64,000 nucleotides of DNA from a virus (taxonomy: Duplodnaviria > Caudoviricetes), in the IMG/VR virus record IMGVR_UViG_3300042554_001750, one strand, 5' to 3'. Both the position numbers and the translations under genes were made by a program. Of this stretch, positions 42,206-48,544 are shown piece by piece; the first letter of the stretch is position 1, and the number at the start of each line of letters is the position of its first letter. The notes below the pieces were generated by a model, which worked only from the letters and a program-made list of their open reading frames with translations, searched no databases and was not told where the DNA came from.

Positions 42206-42460
42206 TTAGTCTAGATTTTCTGTTTTATCCGAATTCACGACTGCAATCGGTAACCACTTTTTTTGTGGGCAGGAAACACTAGGTATATAAGTTTTCACGG
42301 GCATATAACAACCGCAAAGTTTGCAAAAATCAGTAGAATGAAACTGGTCACAAGTCTTGCAAATTTCCAAACGTTGATTTCTTTGTTCTTCGGGCAGTTT
42401 TATATTATCAACAACAGTTTGTGCGGTTTGTGCGAGTTTTTGCTTTAACTTTTCTAGCAT
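42206..42460 (-). CDS. Small Cys-rich protein (DUF6171-like)
   Basis: RLEICKTC...CKLCGC...CPQKKW; exact TATAAATA at 42481-42488. Confidence 0.65.
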   Translation of the reverse strand: MLEKLKQKLAQTAQTVVDNIKLPEEQRNQRLEICKTCDQFHSTDFCKLCGCYMPVKTYIPSVSCPQKKWLPIAVVNSDKTENLD

Positions 42461-42532
42461 CGTTGATCCTCTATTATATGTATTTATAGTATTAGTAAAT
42501 GTAGATTTTTATATGATCATGACCATCAGTTT

Positions 42533-42560
42533 AAAAAAAGGAGGCTTAAGCCCCCTTTTT
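42533..42560 (-). terminator. Intrinsic terminator after tmRNA
   Basis: AAAAAGGGGGC-TTAA-GCCTCC-TTTTTTT. Confidence 0.8.
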
Positions 42561-42890
42561 GGTTAGTTTGGTAACAAGGTCTTTCCTACCCCGTCTCAAG
42601 CTCAAGCGGCTAGAGCAAATACCTCATCGTTTGCAGGTATAAGTTTTGCTTGATTTACGGTCATCGCCTACCGTGCTGTCCACTCTGTTACTCTTTGCCC
42701 TGTCGAAACCATGACTGGCCCATCATAAAAGGACTATAGCAAAAACTACTAAAACTACAGTTATACCAAACAACCATTTTACTACTTCGTCGTTCATATA
42801 ATCCCTTTATGGTGGACCAGGCGGGAGTCGAACCCGCGTCCAGAACACTTTTCTCTTTGCTTCATACAGCAATAATCTTTATGTTATCAT
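42560..42890 (-). ncRNA. ssrA: Two-piece (circularly permuted) tmRNA; acceptor piece ~42890-42810, intervening segment 42809-42722, coding piece from 42721
   Basis: T-arm and CCA end GCGGGTTCGACTCCCGCCTGGTCCACCA upstream of 5' end GGGCCAGTCATGGTTTCGAC; acceptor stem with G3.U; tag reading frame (A)NDEVFALAA*. Confidence 0.92.
42723..42797 (-). CDS. 24-aa single-transmembrane ORF inside the tmRNA intervening segment
   Basis: AAAGGGA RBS-like, MNDEVVKWLFGITVVLVVFAIVLL*. Confidence 0.5.
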   Translation of the reverse strand: MNDEVVKWLFGITVVLVVFAIVLL

Positions 42891-45800
42891 GACTTGTATT
42901 TATTTGTAAAGTACTGATTTAACCATTCCCATTCGTATGTTAATTTCAATTTGGCAAAATCGTCTTTATTGTTTTCATAATACTCATAAGCATCATTTGC
43001 ACCCATTAATGCATACTCACTAAAGTCACCCTCAGCCTTTGCTAACCAAGTATGCAAACGTGTTTGACTCATATAGTCTTGCTCATCATTACACAGTTTA
43101 ATTACTTCTCTGAATGCAGTTCTCCAAGTGCTATATGGGTCTGTATTGAACATTGCAGTTCCCGAATTGATTTCTACTACTTCATGGTTGTCATCAAGTG
43201 TAAAGTCTAATCCTTTACCGGTGTTATTCAATGTCATTATCTTGTTATAGGCAATCATAGCTTGGTGACCATATACTAACCCGTTCACAGGATTAGTAGC
43301 GTGAAAAATATAATGCTTTGACTTTTGAAGCCTGTCAGGTTGCCAGTTCCAATCAAAATTGTCGTCTACTTTTAACTTAGCAAATACCGTAAAGAACCAC
43401 GGCGTAGTGCTTACATTTGCTGCGGCATGGTACGCATTTACTCTTCCATTTACCCCATCAACGCGGACAACTTTGTTCTTTTTACCTTTGGTTACTTTTA
43501 ATAGATGTTCGTAGTTTTCTTCTGCGTTACTTTCACCATTGCTTAAAAATACAATGTCTAACGGATTGCTTTGTAATGGCTTGTAAGATTTTTTAATATA
43601 GGGATAATCATATAATTCTTCTTTTACATATTTTATAGCATCTTTAGGAACTATTATTCTTGTTCCACCTGTAGTAGTTACTAGAATAGTTTTAGAACTT
43701 TCAGACCATAAACTAATAGGTTTCTCATCCTTGATATTAATATTTCTATGGTCGTTAGTTTTAAAAACTGCATAAGGGAACTTAAAGTTTTTATCTATAG
43801 ATCCAACATGACTGTCACTAGTAATAAATTCAGGCGGATTGATTCTAGTGACTGATTGATGCTCATTGAAATTGATACTTGGATAATTTTCTAATGAAGA
43901 AATGTCATTTATGAACTTGCGCAATAATTCAACATTTACTAAAAAGGTATCACCATATTTTTGTCTGTCACTAGGAAACACATGCAATTGTTCCTGCGCA
44001 AAGGGATCGCAAATATAACTGAAATCAAATTTATCGTAATGACATATTGAATTACATACCCAAATAAACTGATCCTTTTTATCTTCTAACAGATTAAGAA
44101 TCTTTTCAAATGTTTTATGATAGGTGTCTACAAAATCAATAGTATGTAATTTTCTATTCCCAATTTTTTCTGTAATGTCGTATATGATATCAACCGATTC
44201 GTAGTTTCCGTGATCTATCAAATATACATCATATAGACAATCAGTAGCCTTTGCTCTTTTACTTTTTACTAAGTTTATAGTATTGAGGTGCTCAATAACT
44301 TTAACATACTTGGTATCTTCTAAAAAGGTTTCTGAATTAATGACATAAGTATTTCCCCAATGATTCCATTGAGTACCAAACACATGAATCATTTTGATTT
44401 GCCATGGACTTGGATAAAAATCAAAAGTAAAATCAGAATAATCTAATTCGCTATTCAATACCCAAAATAATTTTGTTTCTGTTTTGCGAATGCATCTTGC
44501 GATTGTTTCAACCCAGTTGTTGAAGAATCTTGTTTTTTGAAGCTTGGGATATAACTCTTTAAGTTTATTGAAACGAATATTACTTTCTAGGTTACCTTTA
44601 TCAATAAAAAACATACTCAAATTAGTATCTGTTTGAACTTGATGTTCTTCAACATAGTTATATTCTTTATAGCCCAACAAATACAACGGAGCATTGATGT
44701 AGTAGGTTTGTGTGTTCTTACTATATTCATTACCGAACACATTTATGTGTCTAAAGTTTTGTTCAGTTGGCCTCCAACTAAAATCAAACTTATCATAGTT
44801 TAAATCAGGGTTTAGTGCCCAAAATACTTCTTCAGGATGTTGATTAATCAAATCTTCTAATGTAGTCGTAATATAATATTTGTTTACTGTTGTCTTTTTA
44901 CTTTCATTAGAACGTTCCATCAATACAACTTCCGTAGCACCAGGCACTGTGTATCTAGGGCCATTGTTAGCCCACTGATATATTTGAGGCGGACTATGAG
45001 GATTAGGTCTCCATGTAAAATCAAATGTTTCTAAATCATCAGTATTGTTAACGCTCCACAAATTTAGTTGTGCAGCAGGAACAGCTACCGGTTCTAACAT
45101 ATATTTTTTATCTGTTGCTCCCTCTACATGATATTCAACAGTGGGTTCAGTAGATGCATCATTCCATTTATTACCAAACACATATATGTAGGGAGGTGAC
45201 TTGGGATCAGGTCTCCAACTAAAATCAAAACTTTCAATTGGTAGTAATTTTTTCCAATGATTTTCTGTCGCAGTAGATTTTACTAATGCTTTGATGTTAT
45301 CAATGTATGTGTATTCTGTAGCTCCGGGACAATGATACTCAACAGTTGGTTCTTGAAGTGCATCATTCCATTGATTACCAAACACATAGATATAAGGAGG
45401 ACTATGTGGATTAGGTCTCCAGCTATAATCAAAACTTTCTATGTCTATTAATGTTTTCCAATACTGTTGTGTTTTACTAACTTTAGCAATTATGTTAGTA
45501 ATATACTTTTTGTCAGTGGCCCCATGAACTGTGTACAGTACCGTAGGCTCAGTCATAGCATCGTGCCATTGATTGCCAAACACATAGATATAAGGAGGAC
45601 TGCCGGGTTCGGGTCTCCAACTAAAATCAAAATCTTCTACTGGAATCAACACACTCCAATTATCCATGTCGGGCAATGTTTTCGCAAATCTGTCATTCAT
45701 GTATTTGCGTTCAGATGCCCCTTCACAGTGATATTCAATAGTTGGTTCTGTTTCAGCATTGTTACTTTGATTACCCCATACATAGATATATGCTGGTTCT

Positions 45801-48544
45801 CTTGGGTCAGGTCTCCATGTGAAATCAAAACTATCTTTGTCTATAGGTATAAGAATATTATATCTATCATATTCGGGTAGAACGTCAGTATTGCCCATGT
45901 ACTTAATTTCTGTGGCGCCATCACAATGATATTCAATTGTAGATTTTAGTTCACCGGGTATCCACTTGTTACCCCACACATAGATGTATGCTGGCTCTCT
46001 TGGGTCTGGCCGCCAAGTAAAGTCAAAGTTTGTTACCTTTTGTACTTCCTTCCATCTATCATATTCGGGCAATATATCAACAGGTTCTTGAATATATTTG
46101 TACTCAGTAGCCCCTTCCATGTGATATTCTAATGTGGATTTAAGTTCAGGTCTTATCCACTTGTTGCCCCAGACATAGATATATGCAGGTTCTCTTGGAT
46201 CTGGTCTCCAACTTAAATCAAATTTTGCTTTATCAATTGGTTGAATTTCTTTCCACTTAGACAGTTCAGGTAACACTTCAATATCACCCATATACTTTCT
46301 TTCAGTGGCATTTGGCGCTTTATATTCTAAAGTAGGTTTCAATTCAGCCTTGATCCATTTATTTCCCCATGTGTAAATATACGCAGGCTCTCTTGGATCT
46401 GGTCTCCAAGCAAAATCAAATTTAGATTTATCTATTTGCTGATGTTCAACCCAACGGTCATGTTCGGGCAATACTTCAACATTTCCCATATATTTGTATT
46501 CAGTTGCACCGGGGGTGTGATATTCAACAGTAGGTCGTAATTCTCCCGGTATATATTTGTTACCCCATACGTAAATATACGGGGGACTAGTAGGATTGGG
46601 TCTCCAACTAAAGTCAAATTTTTCTTTGTCAATTTGTTGATGTATTTCCCACTTATCTAGCTCGGGTAATACTTCAACATTGCCCATATACTTGCGTTCA
46701 GTTGCTCCATCTACATAATATTCAAGTGTTGGGTGAACCTCAGCCGGCACGTGCTTATTACCCCATGTGTAAATGTAAGCAGGTTCTCTTGGATCTGGTA
46801 TCCAAGTAAAATCAAAATTTTGTATGGATGCATGTATTTTATAGTTGTCCCAATTTGGTAATACTGGAACCTCTCCCATGTATTTTCTATCTGTCGCACC
46901 GGGCACAACATATTCAAGCGTAGGTTTTAATTCAGCAGAAACATACTTATTCCCCCAAGTATAGATATATGCTGGTTCTCTTGGATCGGGGCGCCATGCC
47001 ATGTCAAACTGTGTTTTATCAACTGGAATGTGCATTATCCATTTTTCAAGTTCCGGGACAACATCAACATCTCCCATGTACTTTCTTTCTGTAGCACCTT
47101 CTACATAATATTCTATTGTAGGCTGTATTTCCCCGGGTATATATTTGTTACCCCAAACATAGACATAAGCGGGTTCACGAGGATCTGGTCTCCAGGCTAG
47201 ATCAAAATTAGTTACTAAATGATGTATTTTCCATTTGTCTGTTTCCGGGAGAACCTCAACATCTCCCATGTACTTTCGTTCAGTAGCCCCGGGGGTGTGA
47301 TATTCTAGGGTTGGTTTTATTTCTCCAGGTATATATTTATTACCCCAGACATAAACATAAGCAGGTTCTCTTGGGTCAGGTCGCCATGTCAAATCAAAGG
47401 TGTTCTTTTGATATACGATCCATTTATTATATTCAGGCACAACCTCAACATCTCCCATGTACTTTCGTTCAGTAGCGCCAGGAGTGTGGTATTCTAGAGT
47501 TGGTGATATTTCAGCAGATACAAACTTATTCCCCCAAGTATAGATATATGCTGGTTCTCTTGGATCAGGCCTCCAAGTAAAGTCAAAATTTTTAACTTCA
47601 CTGTATATTTTCCATAACTCAGTTTGGGGCAAGACCGGGGCAGGATCATTCATGTATTTTTTATCTATTGCACCATCTACATGATATTCAATGGTTGAAT
47701 GAAGTTCAGCGGGAACCCACTTATTACCCCATACATAAATGTATGCAGGACTCGTTGGATCAGGTATCCAACTAAAGTCAAATAAATCTAGATTTATTGG
47801 ATCATTGATTACCCACTTGTCATATTTGGGAATCAATCTAACCGTGTCTGACATATATTTTTTTTCTGTCGCACCGGGTGCACGGTACTCTACTGTAGGA
47901 GATATCGCCCCGGAAACCCATTTGTTACCCCATACATAGATATAAGGAGGTTCATGCTCGTCTGGCATCCAAGTAAAGTCAAACAGTTTCTCATCTATTG
48001 GTTTATGAATCACCCAATTATCCCAATCAGGGACTGCTGTTGCTAATTGCGTGTCCACAAATTTAATAACGGTTGCGCCGGGTACAATATATCTAGGTCC
48101 ACCTGTTTTGCGCCACTGAGAACTAAACTGATAGATAAAAGGAGGATCAGTTGTATCAGGATGCCAGCTAAAATCAAACAACTTTTCATCTATAGGATAT
48201 GGAATTACCCAGTTATCAGATTTTAATTTTGTTCTTTTAACACAATCAACATCATTTCTATAAATGATACAGGGATTTTGATTGTCTGTATTAACTAACC
48301 AAGTCCCGCTATCTTTCTGATGCTGGCTGGGCCAAACATTGATATGATCTTCTGCCCACACATCTTCGTCAGGTAGAAAATCAAAATCAAAATCCCAATC
48401 AAAATTGCGATAATCACTAAACTCGTTGATTATCCAAAAATGTTCTGTAGTAGATTGGTTTCTAGCATCTGCTAAATCTTTAGCAAACTTTTCTCTAGGA
48501 TGGACGTTTGGTTTTTTACCGTAATAAAATACATCTCTCAGCAT
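42887..48544 (-). CDS. 1885-aa protein with ~17 tandem ~58-aa repeats and several degenerate glycosyltransferase-like domains
   Basis: Repeat consensus FDFxWRPDPREPAYIYVWGNK...PTLEY..PGATERKYMG; C-terminal LDIVFLSNGE..A..NY...RVDGV.G...Y.AAA domain. Confidence 0.75.
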   Translation of the reverse strand: MLRDVFYYGKKPNVHPREKFAKDLADARNQSTTEHFWIINEFSDYRNFDWDFDFDFLPDEDVWAEDHINVWPSQHQKDSGTWLVNTDNQNPCIIYRNDVDCVKRTKLKSDNWVIPYPIDEKLFDFSWHPDTTDPPFIYQFSSQWRKTGGPRYIVPGATVIKFVDTQLATAVPDWDNWVIHKPIDEKLFDFTWMPDEHEPPYIYVWGNKWVSGAISPTVEYRAPGATEKKYMSDTVRLIPKYDKWVINDPINLDLFDFSWIPDPTSPAYIYVWGNKWVPAELHSTIEYHVDGAIDKKYMNDPAPVLPQTELWKIYSEVKNFDFTWRPDPREPAYIYTWGNKFVSAEISPTLEYHTPGATERKYMGDVEVVPEYNKWIVYQKNTFDLTWRPDPREPAYVYVWGNKYIPGEIKPTLEYHTPGATERKYMGDVEVLPETDKWKIHHLVTNFDLAWRPDPREPAYVYVWGNKYIPGEIQPTIEYYVEGATERKYMGDVDVVPELEKWIMHIPVDKTQFDMAWRPDPREPAYIYTWGNKYVSAELKPTLEYVVPGATDRKYMGEVPVLPNWDNYKIHASIQNFDFTWIPDPREPAYIYTWGNKHVPAEVHPTLEYYVDGATERKYMGNVEVLPELDKWEIHQQIDKEKFDFSWRPNPTSPPYIYVWGNKYIPGELRPTVEYHTPGATEYKYMGNVEVLPEHDRWVEHQQIDKSKFDFAWRPDPREPAYIYTWGNKWIKAELKPTLEYKAPNATERKYMGDIEVLPELSKWKEIQPIDKAKFDLSWRPDPREPAYIYVWGNKWIRPELKSTLEYHMEGATEYKYIQEPVDILPEYDRWKEVQKVTNFDFTWRPDPREPAYIYVWGNKWIPGELKSTIEYHCDGATEIKYMGNTDVLPEYDRYNILIPIDKDSFDFTWRPDPREPAYIYVWGNQSNNAETEPTIEYHCEGASERKYMNDRFAKTLPDMDNWSVLIPVEDFDFSWRPEPGSPPYIYVFGNQWHDAMTEPTVLYTVHGATDKKYITNIIAKVSKTQQYWKTLIDIESFDYSWRPNPHSPPYIYVFGNQWNDALQEPTVEYHCPGATEYTYIDNIKALVKSTATENHWKKLLPIESFDFSWRPDPKSPPYIYVFGNKWNDASTEPTVEYHVEGATDKKYMLEPVAVPAAQLNLWSVNNTDDLETFDFTWRPNPHSPPQIYQWANNGPRYTVPGATEVVLMERSNESKKTTVNKYYITTTLEDLINQHPEEVFWALNPDLNYDKFDFSWRPTEQNFRHINVFGNEYSKNTQTYYINAPLYLLGYKEYNYVEEHQVQTDTNLSMFFIDKGNLESNIRFNKLKELYPKLQKTRFFNNWVETIARCIRKTETKLFWVLNSELDYSDFTFDFYPSPWQIKMIHVFGTQWNHWGNTYVINSETFLEDTKYVKVIEHLNTINLVKSKRAKATDCLYDVYLIDHGNYESVDIIYDITEKIGNRKLHTIDFVDTYHKTFEKILNLLEDKKDQFIWVCNSICHYDKFDFSYICDPFAQEQLHVFPSDRQKYGDTFLVNVELLRKFINDISSLENYPSINFNEHQSVTRINPPEFITSDSHVGSIDKNFKFPYAVFKTNDHRNINIKDEKPISLWSESSKTILVTTTGGTRIIVPKDAIKYVKEELYDYPYIKKSYKPLQSNPLDIVFLSNGESNAEENYEHLLKVTKGKKNKVVRVDGVNGRVNAYHAAANVSTTPWFFTVFAKLKVDDNFDWNWQPDRLQKSKHYIFHATNPVNGLVYGHQAMIAYNKIMTLNNTGKGLDFTLDDNHEVVEINSGTAMFNTDPYSTWRTAFREVIKLCNDEQDYMSQTRLHTWLAKAEGDFSEYALMGANDAYEYYENNKDDFAKLKLTYEWEWLNQYFTNKYKS

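Follow-up and report, generated by a model that had tools for sequence, protein, structure and literature searches.

Permuted tmRNA genes contain an intervening segment (IVS) between the acceptor piece and the coding piece. Few stable RNAs have been studied as well as tmRNA. In its permuted form the IVS has been treated as disposable, and the locus described here raises the question of whether this segment can also be a gene. An initial annotation, made from the sequence of the locus, reported that the IVS of a permuted tmRNA gene is filled by a 24-codon open reading frame (ORF) for a hydrophobic peptide. It proposed a dual-function precursor in which translation competes with maturation. The locus lies in a stretch of 64,000 nucleotides (the window) that belongs to a large phage genome. 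The long ORFs of the window are all on the minus strand; an HNH endonuclease, a terminase-like fragment and structural proteins of the virion are among their products.

The identity of the RNA gene is clear. ARAGORN finds a permuted tmRNA on the minus strand (42511-42902) with the tag ANDEVFALAA as the sole RNA gene in the window, and Rfam matches the locus at full length with both RF04321 (tmRNA_permuted, 137 bits against a gathering threshold of 47) and RF01850 (beta_tmRNA, 138 bits). The order of the parts is permuted, in that the T-arm/acceptor piece with its CCA end precedes both the 5′ acceptor strand and the tag frame. The acceptor stem extends across both pieces, where GGGCCAG and CTGGTCC form seven of seven pairs, including the alanine identity pair G3:U70, and the tag frame (42602-42634) closes with the protease-recognition tail ALAA. 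Because GGGCCAG pairs with CTGGTCC at every position, the mature 5′ end is predicted to be G 42721; this end and the processing enzymes named below are derived from the rules that apply to tRNAs. The features of the locus are as follows, in the direction of transcription.

42881..42910, minus strand: candidate sigma-70-like promoter (TTTACA, 18-nt spacer, TG-TAACAT; 9 of 12 consensus matches)
42810..42871, minus strand: acceptor piece, with the T arm, the 3′ acceptor strand CTGGTCC, discriminator A and CCA (RF04321 alignment start at 42871, ARAGORN, sequence reading)
42722..42809, minus strand: IVS of 88 nt, predicted to be excised, a hairpin with a closing stem of 13-15 bp (boundaries from the sequence, fold computed)
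42797..42809, minus strand: 5′ strand of the closing stem, containing the Shine-Dalgarno (SD) sequence and the A of the ATG
42802..42808, minus strand: SD-like AAAGGGA, 5 nt ahead of the ATG and fully paired in the closing stem
42723..42797, minus strand: ORF of 24 codons plus TGA, with its ATG start at 42797 (ORF reading; conservation and purifying selection in relatives)
42726..42738, minus strand: 3′ strand of the closing stem, made of the last four codons of the ORF and one base of the preceding codon
42722..42725, minus strand: TGAT immediately 5′ of the mature G, which gives the ORF its stop and is a general IVS motif
42534..42721, minus strand: coding piece, with GGGCCAG, the tag frame at 42602-42634 plus stop, and a terminal hairpin with a T run at 42534-42560 (ARAGORN, Rfam, sequence reading)

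The promoter candidate is a consensus match only, and such sites occur in the region at chance number. The terminal hairpin at 42534-42560 is aligned by RF01850 as the 3′ terminal stem of the model; a simple terminator scan listed no terminator, this hairpin included. Upstream, an ORF of 1885 aa (42887-48544, minus strand) ends 16 nt ahead of the tmRNA, with the promoter candidate inside its last codons. A Pfam search of this ORF returned no significant domain, and it is syntenic with the tmRNA in five other phage loci (L140, L124, L182, L191 and L168). A DUF6171 protein of 84 aa (PF19668, phrog_13558; 42206-42460, minus strand) is encoded directly downstream of the tmRNA terminator.

A rereading of the sequence, together with ARAGORN and Rfam, confirmed the coordinates, SD sequence, ATG, 24-codon ORF, peptide and 1-nt gap to the mature 5′ end that the initial annotation had given. 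The stop codon TGA (42723-42725) is followed by a single T and then by the predicted mature 5′ G (42721). The start signal is canonical, with AAGGG located 5 nt before the ATG; most relatives have AAGGAG at 6 nt. The product is a single-helix hydrophobic peptide with an acidic N-terminus (mean Kyte-Doolittle value 1.94). The 24-residue peptide has a short acidic head and a hydrophobic stretch of ~17 residues, and it most likely inserts in the host inner membrane as a single helix.

Relatives of this arrangement were sought among other permuted tmRNA genes. Two pattern scans of IMG/VR, based on the T arm, CCA and the conserved sequence that opens the coding piece, yielded at least 240 loci with IVSs of 51-105 nt, and a third scan of viral contigs anchored only on CCA, AAGGAG and ATG added further members. 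Together with one scan of bacterial and archaeal genomes, these searches gave a total of at least 256 parsed permuted tmRNA loci; the locus counts are lower bounds, as other spellings of the T arm were missed by the first patterns. The initial annotation had suggested looking for hydrophobic ORFs conserved across the IVSs of permuted tmRNA genes, and such ORFs do recur: the same arrangement is present in at least 41 loci, which represent 30 unique IVSs and encode 29 distinct peptides of 19-27 aa. In their shared anatomy, the ATG lies 9-15 nt past the CCA, and the terminal TGAT supplies the stop of the hydrophobic ORF, its TGA being 1 nt before the mature G. Most of the 41 loci also have an AAGGAG-like SD sequence 5-6 nt ahead of the ATG.

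The closest relative among the matches listed, L144, encodes a peptide identical to that of the window, and three others (L214, L140 and L197) encode it with five substitutions. A graded series ties the window peptide to subgroups with a common hydrophobic tail. The same slot is occupied in L087, L211, L129 and L186 by peptides that are unrelated in sequence and are again single hydrophobic helices. ORFs of this kind occupy roughly 15% of the sampled IVSs, and ~85% of the related IVSs in the two unbiased samples are devoid of one (both among the matches listed). Since most related IVSs do without it, any function of the ORF must be optional.

The distribution of the arrangement points to phages. 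A scan of one genome per bacterial or archaeal species, with a pattern for IVSs of ~65-95 nt, produced three matches, all on short MAG contigs, and one of these (L242) bears a family member; for IVSs of this pattern and length, the arrangement thus seems to be carried by phages. The peptide has no tblastn match in cultured phages, Pfam and PHROG scans gave no match, and the sole NCBIfam match has E = 0.92. Cultured Stenotrophomonas and Xanthomonas phages with a related permuted tmRNA have non-coding hairpins as IVSs, and a search for relatives by way of the neighboring subtilase gene found none. An IVS ORF in the cultured phage JGB6 has no SD sequence and was taken as a chance occurrence. A single IVS of 91 nt (L222) has a filling ORF of 25 codons, with AAGGA and an ATG, whose product is acidic and proline-rich and not hydrophobic.

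One detail of the initial annotation did not survive these comparisons. The peptide begins with residues that echo the NDEV of the tag. However, L144 has the identical peptide and the tag ANDSSYALAA, and a permutation test on 20 pairs of peptide and tag found the actual pairing to be no better than permuted ones (P = 0.10). Residues 2-5 of the peptide equal tag residues in the window only. As judged from these sequences, the echo is a coincidence that rests on a common N-D start.

The IVS behaves as an exchangeable slot in the tmRNA gene. The mature tmRNA parts of L143 and L219 are 99.6% identical and those of L211 and L020 are 98.5% identical, yet the IVSs are unrelated in both pairs, and IVS contents also differ between L130 and L219, whose mature parts are 97% identical. 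Depending on the locus, the IVS in these near-identical tmRNAs is occupied by an ORF for a hydrophobic peptide, by one for a cysteine-rich peptide or by a plain hairpin of 61 nt. Hence, the ORF is dispensable for making tmRNA and is better viewed as an accessory passenger in a swappable slot. Similar variation is evident among phages that share the upstream genes of the window (the giant ORF and a carbamoyltransferase gene), of which L140 carries the peptide gene and L124, L182, L175 and L191 carry a non-coding IVS. Moreover, the tmRNA cassette of the window (42602-42875) is 95% identical to that of L144 over 275 nt, whereas the neighboring proteins share 30-45% identity. The differences between the two cassettes are concentrated in the tag codons (ANDEVFALAA versus ANDSSYALAA). 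This pattern in the sequences suggests either horizontal exchange or very strong constraint, accompanied by fast evolution of the tag. Because slot contents vary and the cassette is shared amid diverged neighbors, the cassette or its insert appears to move between genomes.

Short ORFs can arise by chance, particularly in a segment such as the window IVS, which is 41% T and 7% C. When the interior of this IVS was shuffled with its ends kept (20000 shuffles), an IVS-filling ORF appeared in 1.6% of the shuffled sequences and an equally hydrophobic one in just 0.045%. By itself, the result for one IVS is suggestive, and it is the comparative data that decide. Among 163 unique related IVSs (among the matches listed), 26 have an IVS-filling ORF, compared with 4.3 ± 2.0 in shuffles, and 23 of the 163 have a hydrophobic one, compared with 0.6. 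Shuffling the 23 ORF-bearing IVSs themselves gives 0.48 filling ORFs. In the IVS ORFs, the T content is 24, 63 and 35% at codon positions 1, 2 and 3, respectively. Because T reaches 63% only at the second position, the hydrophobicity is specific to the reading frame and not general to a T-rich spacer. The initial annotation had conceded that T-rich composition alone might account for the hydrophobic codons, and the shuffles and the codon-position T content rule this out. A chance ORF in a T-rich spacer that happens to end in the conserved TGA is extremely improbable. The composition favors it, and non-coding IVSs also have the motifs that provide the stop codon and the SD-like purine run. However, the rarity of equally hydrophobic ORFs in shuffles, the excess of such IVSs over expectation, and the codon periodicity and synonymous excess described below all speak against it. 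Barring a sampling artefact among the related ORFs, the comparative data already refute it.

Substitutions in the ORFs have the pattern typical of selection on a protein. Five pairs, picked by eye as independent rather than from a tree, together show 38 synonymous changes on 87 sites and 19 non-synonymous changes on 249 sites (pN/pS 0.17, binomial p ~1e-10), and the differences are distributed 19/4/34 over codon positions 1/2/3. For the part of the ORF outside the closing-stem strand, pN/pS is 0.19 (p 4e-8). The ORFs of L138 and L210 differ at 15 sites (3/1/11 by codon position), of which 13 are synonymous and two non-synonymous (dN/dS 0.02). A dN/dS of 0.04 was obtained for L142 and L125, and the two differences between the window and L144 ORFs are both synonymous. 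Across the 24-codon subgroup, segregating sites are distributed 15/5/21 over the codon positions, and variation is concentrated at third codon positions and at the first positions of Leu codons. Lengths range from 19 to 27 codons in steps of whole codons only, and every ORF stays in frame up to the terminal TGA. The dN/dS comparison recommended in the initial annotation has thus come out in favor of purifying selection, and on the evidence of these alignments the IVS ORF is a protein-coding gene. At its 3′ end, base pairing of the RNA with the purine-rich SD strand places a further constraint on the final four or five codons, and this pairing alone favors U-rich, hydrophobic codons there.

Alternatively, the conservation could reflect RNA structure, or some function of the IVS at the RNA level, with no protein involved. 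The window IVS folds at -41.3 kcal/mol, far better than its shuffles (z = -5.8; none of 200 was as good), and its closing stem is conserved. However, members of the family share no interior structure beyond this stem, they vary mainly at third codon positions and Leu first positions, they change in length by whole codons, and those without nucleotide similarity keep the same reading-frame architecture. We therefore consider it very unlikely that RNA-level constraint is the whole explanation.

The closing stem nevertheless matters to how the ORF could be used. Nearly all IVSs of this tmRNA type are hairpins in which the first 11-12 nt pair with the 11-12 nt before a final unpaired TGAT or TAAT. 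In non-coding IVSs, pairing in the stem exceeds 0.9 at most positions and many of the pair types co-vary. The final motif is TGAT in all 30 ORF-bearing IVSs, and TGAT or TAAT in 140 of the 147 others (among the matches listed). Where an IVS bears an ORF, the SD region makes up the 5′ strand of the stem and the final four to five codons make up its 3′ strand, and in each of the 22 IVSs with an identified SD sequence, the SD pairs with the 3′ end of its own ORF. Because the stem and the TGAT are also found in non-coding IVSs, the purine run after the CCA and the stop before the 5′ G are older structural motifs co-opted by the gene. The pyrimidine strand that pairs with the SD gives in-frame Leu, Val and Phe codons, and this may account for hydrophobic peptides being the commonest tenants of the slot.

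This architecture has consequences for the accessibility of the ribosome-binding site (RBS). The computed cost of opening the RBS is 4-6 kcal/mol as long as the transcript extends no further than IVS nt 75, and it is 16.6-20.7 kcal/mol once the closing strand and the 5′ acceptor strand have been made. For the excised IVS the computed cost is 12.9 kcal/mol, with a median of 11.0 kcal/mol for the family. Because this cost jumps during transcription, ribosomes should load only in a short co-transcriptional window. With the RBS locked in the folded RNA, the ORF could also be translated rarely or never.

Taking these observations together, we consider it likely that the IVS is also a micro-mRNA for the 24-residue membrane peptide, that its co-transcriptional translation excludes maturation of the same molecule, and that it is an accessory tenant of the slot. 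The excised piece of the tmRNA precursor very probably doubles as a messenger. The anatomy of the locus, its recurrence, purifying selection, conservation of the stem and the computed energetics are established here; translation, membrane insertion, the timing and any effect on the host are inferred. According to this model, the peptide gene sits in the loop of the hairpin that tmRNA genes of this type use to close the IVS, and its RBS would be open only on the nascent transcript, before the 3′ strand of the stem is made, such that ribosomes would load co-transcriptionally. A ribosome completing the ORF would have to unwind the closing stem and the acceptor stem. After it leaves, the hairpin and the tRNA-like domain would fold, the RBS would be locked, and the precursor would mature into a two-piece tmRNA. 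Translation and maturation would be mutually exclusive for each molecule, and peptide output would be tied to tmRNA transcription.

The dimensions of the ribosome are compatible with this exclusion. The mRNA channel covers about a dozen nt 3′ of the A site, and therefore a ribosome at the ORF stop would hold the whole 5′ acceptor strand; likewise, an initiating 30S subunit would cover the CCA end. Since a ribosome would occupy the acceptor strand or the CCA, translation and the folding or processing of the tRNA-like domain would not take place simultaneously on one molecule. The anatomy makes it plausible that translation competes with RNase P or 3′ processing, as the RBS belongs to the closing stem and only 1 nt separates the stop codon from the site of cleavage. 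The geometry fits this idea of competition, not that of an obligatory switch. Because the hydrophobic ORF is under selection, the precursor can be regarded as dual-function, and this part of the original proposal is upheld by the recurrence and the pN/pS values of a small, membrane-type hydrophobic coding sequence. The proposal that the ORF acts as an obligatory maturation switch is weakened, since mature tmRNAs with 97-99.6% identity have an unrelated ORF or a plain hairpin in its place.

It is conceivable that only the act of translation matters, with the frame acting in cis like a leader that delays or gates maturation and the peptide being a by-product. The RBS and stop are built into the processing hairpin, with the stop 1 nt from the RNase P site, and RBS accessibility changes sharply during transcription, as might be expected of such a device. 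However, purifying selection acts on the amino-acid sequence and its hydrophobicity, including the part beyond the stem, the unrelated peptides in the slot are again single hydrophobic helices, and near-identical tmRNAs do without any ORF. For these reasons we regard a purely cis-acting role as improbable.

A second elaboration, which we advance only tentatively and hold to be doubtful, is that the peptide gene and the tmRNA are functionally coupled in a self-monitoring ribosome-rescue circuit during infection. Once cut by RNase P, the excised IVS would constitute an mRNA with a stop 1 nt from its 3′ end. The mRNA channel of a terminating ribosome would be empty, which would set release by RF2 in competition with trans-translation by the tmRNA from the same precursor. 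Whether the peptide is left untagged or is tagged and degraded would then report tmRNA activity, and ribosomes on the precursor would hold back maturation. Cysteine-rich IVS ORFs that read through into the mature piece (see below) would become true non-stop messages after cleavage, which would fit the same idea.

The preferred explanation, a micro-mRNA translated before the precursor matures, leaves room for different actions of the peptide. The peptide might be a membrane-damaging effector (type I toxin-like, or a small lysis or host-takeover peptide) that is silenced by the 5′-3′ fold-back and released in a burst upon transcription of the tmRNA unit. This concerns only what the peptide does, and since it is compatible with the main explanation, we do not count it against that explanation. 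Among type I toxin systems, hok/sok provides an example of an mRNA with fold-back inhibition, and Ibs and ShoB are examples of small hydrophobic toxins. The window ORF has the corresponding trait of a small hydrophobic peptide encoded by an mRNA with a sequestered RBS, and the family peptides of 19-27 aa are almost wholly hydrophobic. Yet many harmless small membrane proteins look alike, and the peptide matches no toxin family in Pfam or NCBIfam and no PHROG family. No gene for an antisense antitoxin RNA is evident: promoter-like sites on the opposite (plus) strand occur at chance level (3 found versus 2.4 expected), with none near or closely facing the ORF, and the one at 42463-42490 points at the IVS from ~230 nt away, across the terminal hairpin of the tmRNA. 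Furthermore, the fold-back stem is general to non-coding IVSs and is here inherited from the tmRNA processing hairpin. An effector role is thus an unlikely, although reasonable, candidate for the action of the peptide.

The locus resembles several known systems. Permuted tmRNA genes of the betaproteobacterial type (RF01850; RF04321; PMC11915505) and of phages (PMC9004378) have the same order of acceptor piece, IVS and coding piece. They also share with the window the G3:U70 pair, the ALAA tag end and removal of the IVS by tRNA-processing enzymes, which is predicted here. In the published papers that we found, their IVS is treated as non-coding, whereas the window IVS holds a selected protein-coding gene. 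The only IVS contents given in a 2025 paper on a tmRNA database are a repetitive element and a gene for tRNA-Ala (PMC11915505). IVS content is not discussed in the description of a phage-borne two-piece tmRNA in the OM43 phage Melnitz (PMC9004378) or in a 2014 tmRNA survey, and our literature search found no published description of a coding IVS in tmRNA.

The nearest published analogue that we found is the S23p ORF in the 23S rRNA IVS of Coxiella burnetii, which is excised by RNase III; this ORF appears to be untranslated in vivo and decaying, and its upstream region is unstable (PMC4990558). Both segments are closed by a stem, excised from the precursor of a stable RNA and contain an ORF. 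In contrast to S23p, the window ORF has a canonical SD sequence, is under purifying selection and is far smaller, and its excision is expected to involve RNase P and 3′-end enzymes. The RNA here is a tmRNA and the peptide has no family match, which makes S23p an analogue only. The dual-function RNAs SgrS/SgrT, AzuCR/AzuC, Spot 42/SpfP and RNAIII/Hld likewise combine a functional RNA with a protein of 15-50 aa that is often membrane-associated (PMC12612679, PMC12310071). As with the window precursor, if it is translated as we expect, one transcript gives rise to a functional RNA and a small protein. However, dual-function sRNAs are base-pairing regulators that retain their coding part, whereas the RNA here is a tmRNA whose coding part is discarded in maturation, and they too are analogues only. 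Neither of the two 2025 reviews of dual-function RNAs mentions tmRNA (PMC12612679, PMC12310071).

These findings point to a new route to a dual-function transcript, in which the part cut out as a stable RNA matures would serve as the messenger, with an RBS that would be gated by the processing hairpin. They also establish the IVS as an exchangeable gene slot in phage genomes. Annotation pipelines that mask tmRNA as non-coding and ignore ORFs of fewer than 30 codons miss this recurrent class of phage small proteins, and the IVS peptides are candidates for phage factors acting at the host membrane. A natural system of ~90 nt would also be a compact one in which to study co-transcriptional translation windows and competition between ribosomes and RNase P.

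Other contents of the slot were observed during the scans. A second family of IVS ORFs is present in L133, L122, L219, L216 and L226, where the IVS is 101 nt long, with an SD-like AAAGGA and an ATG at IVS nt 12. These ORFs have ~30 codons and a CPxC ... HKC cysteine pattern, with variation mostly between the cysteine motifs. Their frame differs from that of the terminal TGA and continues into the mature 5′ piece for 27 nt, or for 57 nt in L226, and they would be left without a stop codon after RNase P cleavage. In a second lineage of permuted tmRNAs (11 loci, L255, L258, L263, L283, L288, L291, L293, L300, L312, L323 and L327), the IVS is 159-186 nt long, the T arm is different and tags such as ANDNFAPLALAA are found. 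The IVS of this lineage has an acidic ORF of 18-28 aa with a conserved G-D-S-D-E-E-P-like core, followed after a few nt by a hydrophobic ORF of ~26 aa, which also ends at a TGAT right before the mature G. Two IVSs of 91-92 nt (L225 and L234) contain a T-arm-like GGTTCGATTCCAC element that is perhaps a fragment of a tRNA-like structure (compare the tRNA-Ala gene reported in an IVS in PMC11915505). Finally, in six loci with an IVS of 62 nt (L003, L016, L040, L065, L097 and L118), a tandem direct repeat with a unit of ~22 nt replaces the plain hairpin loop.
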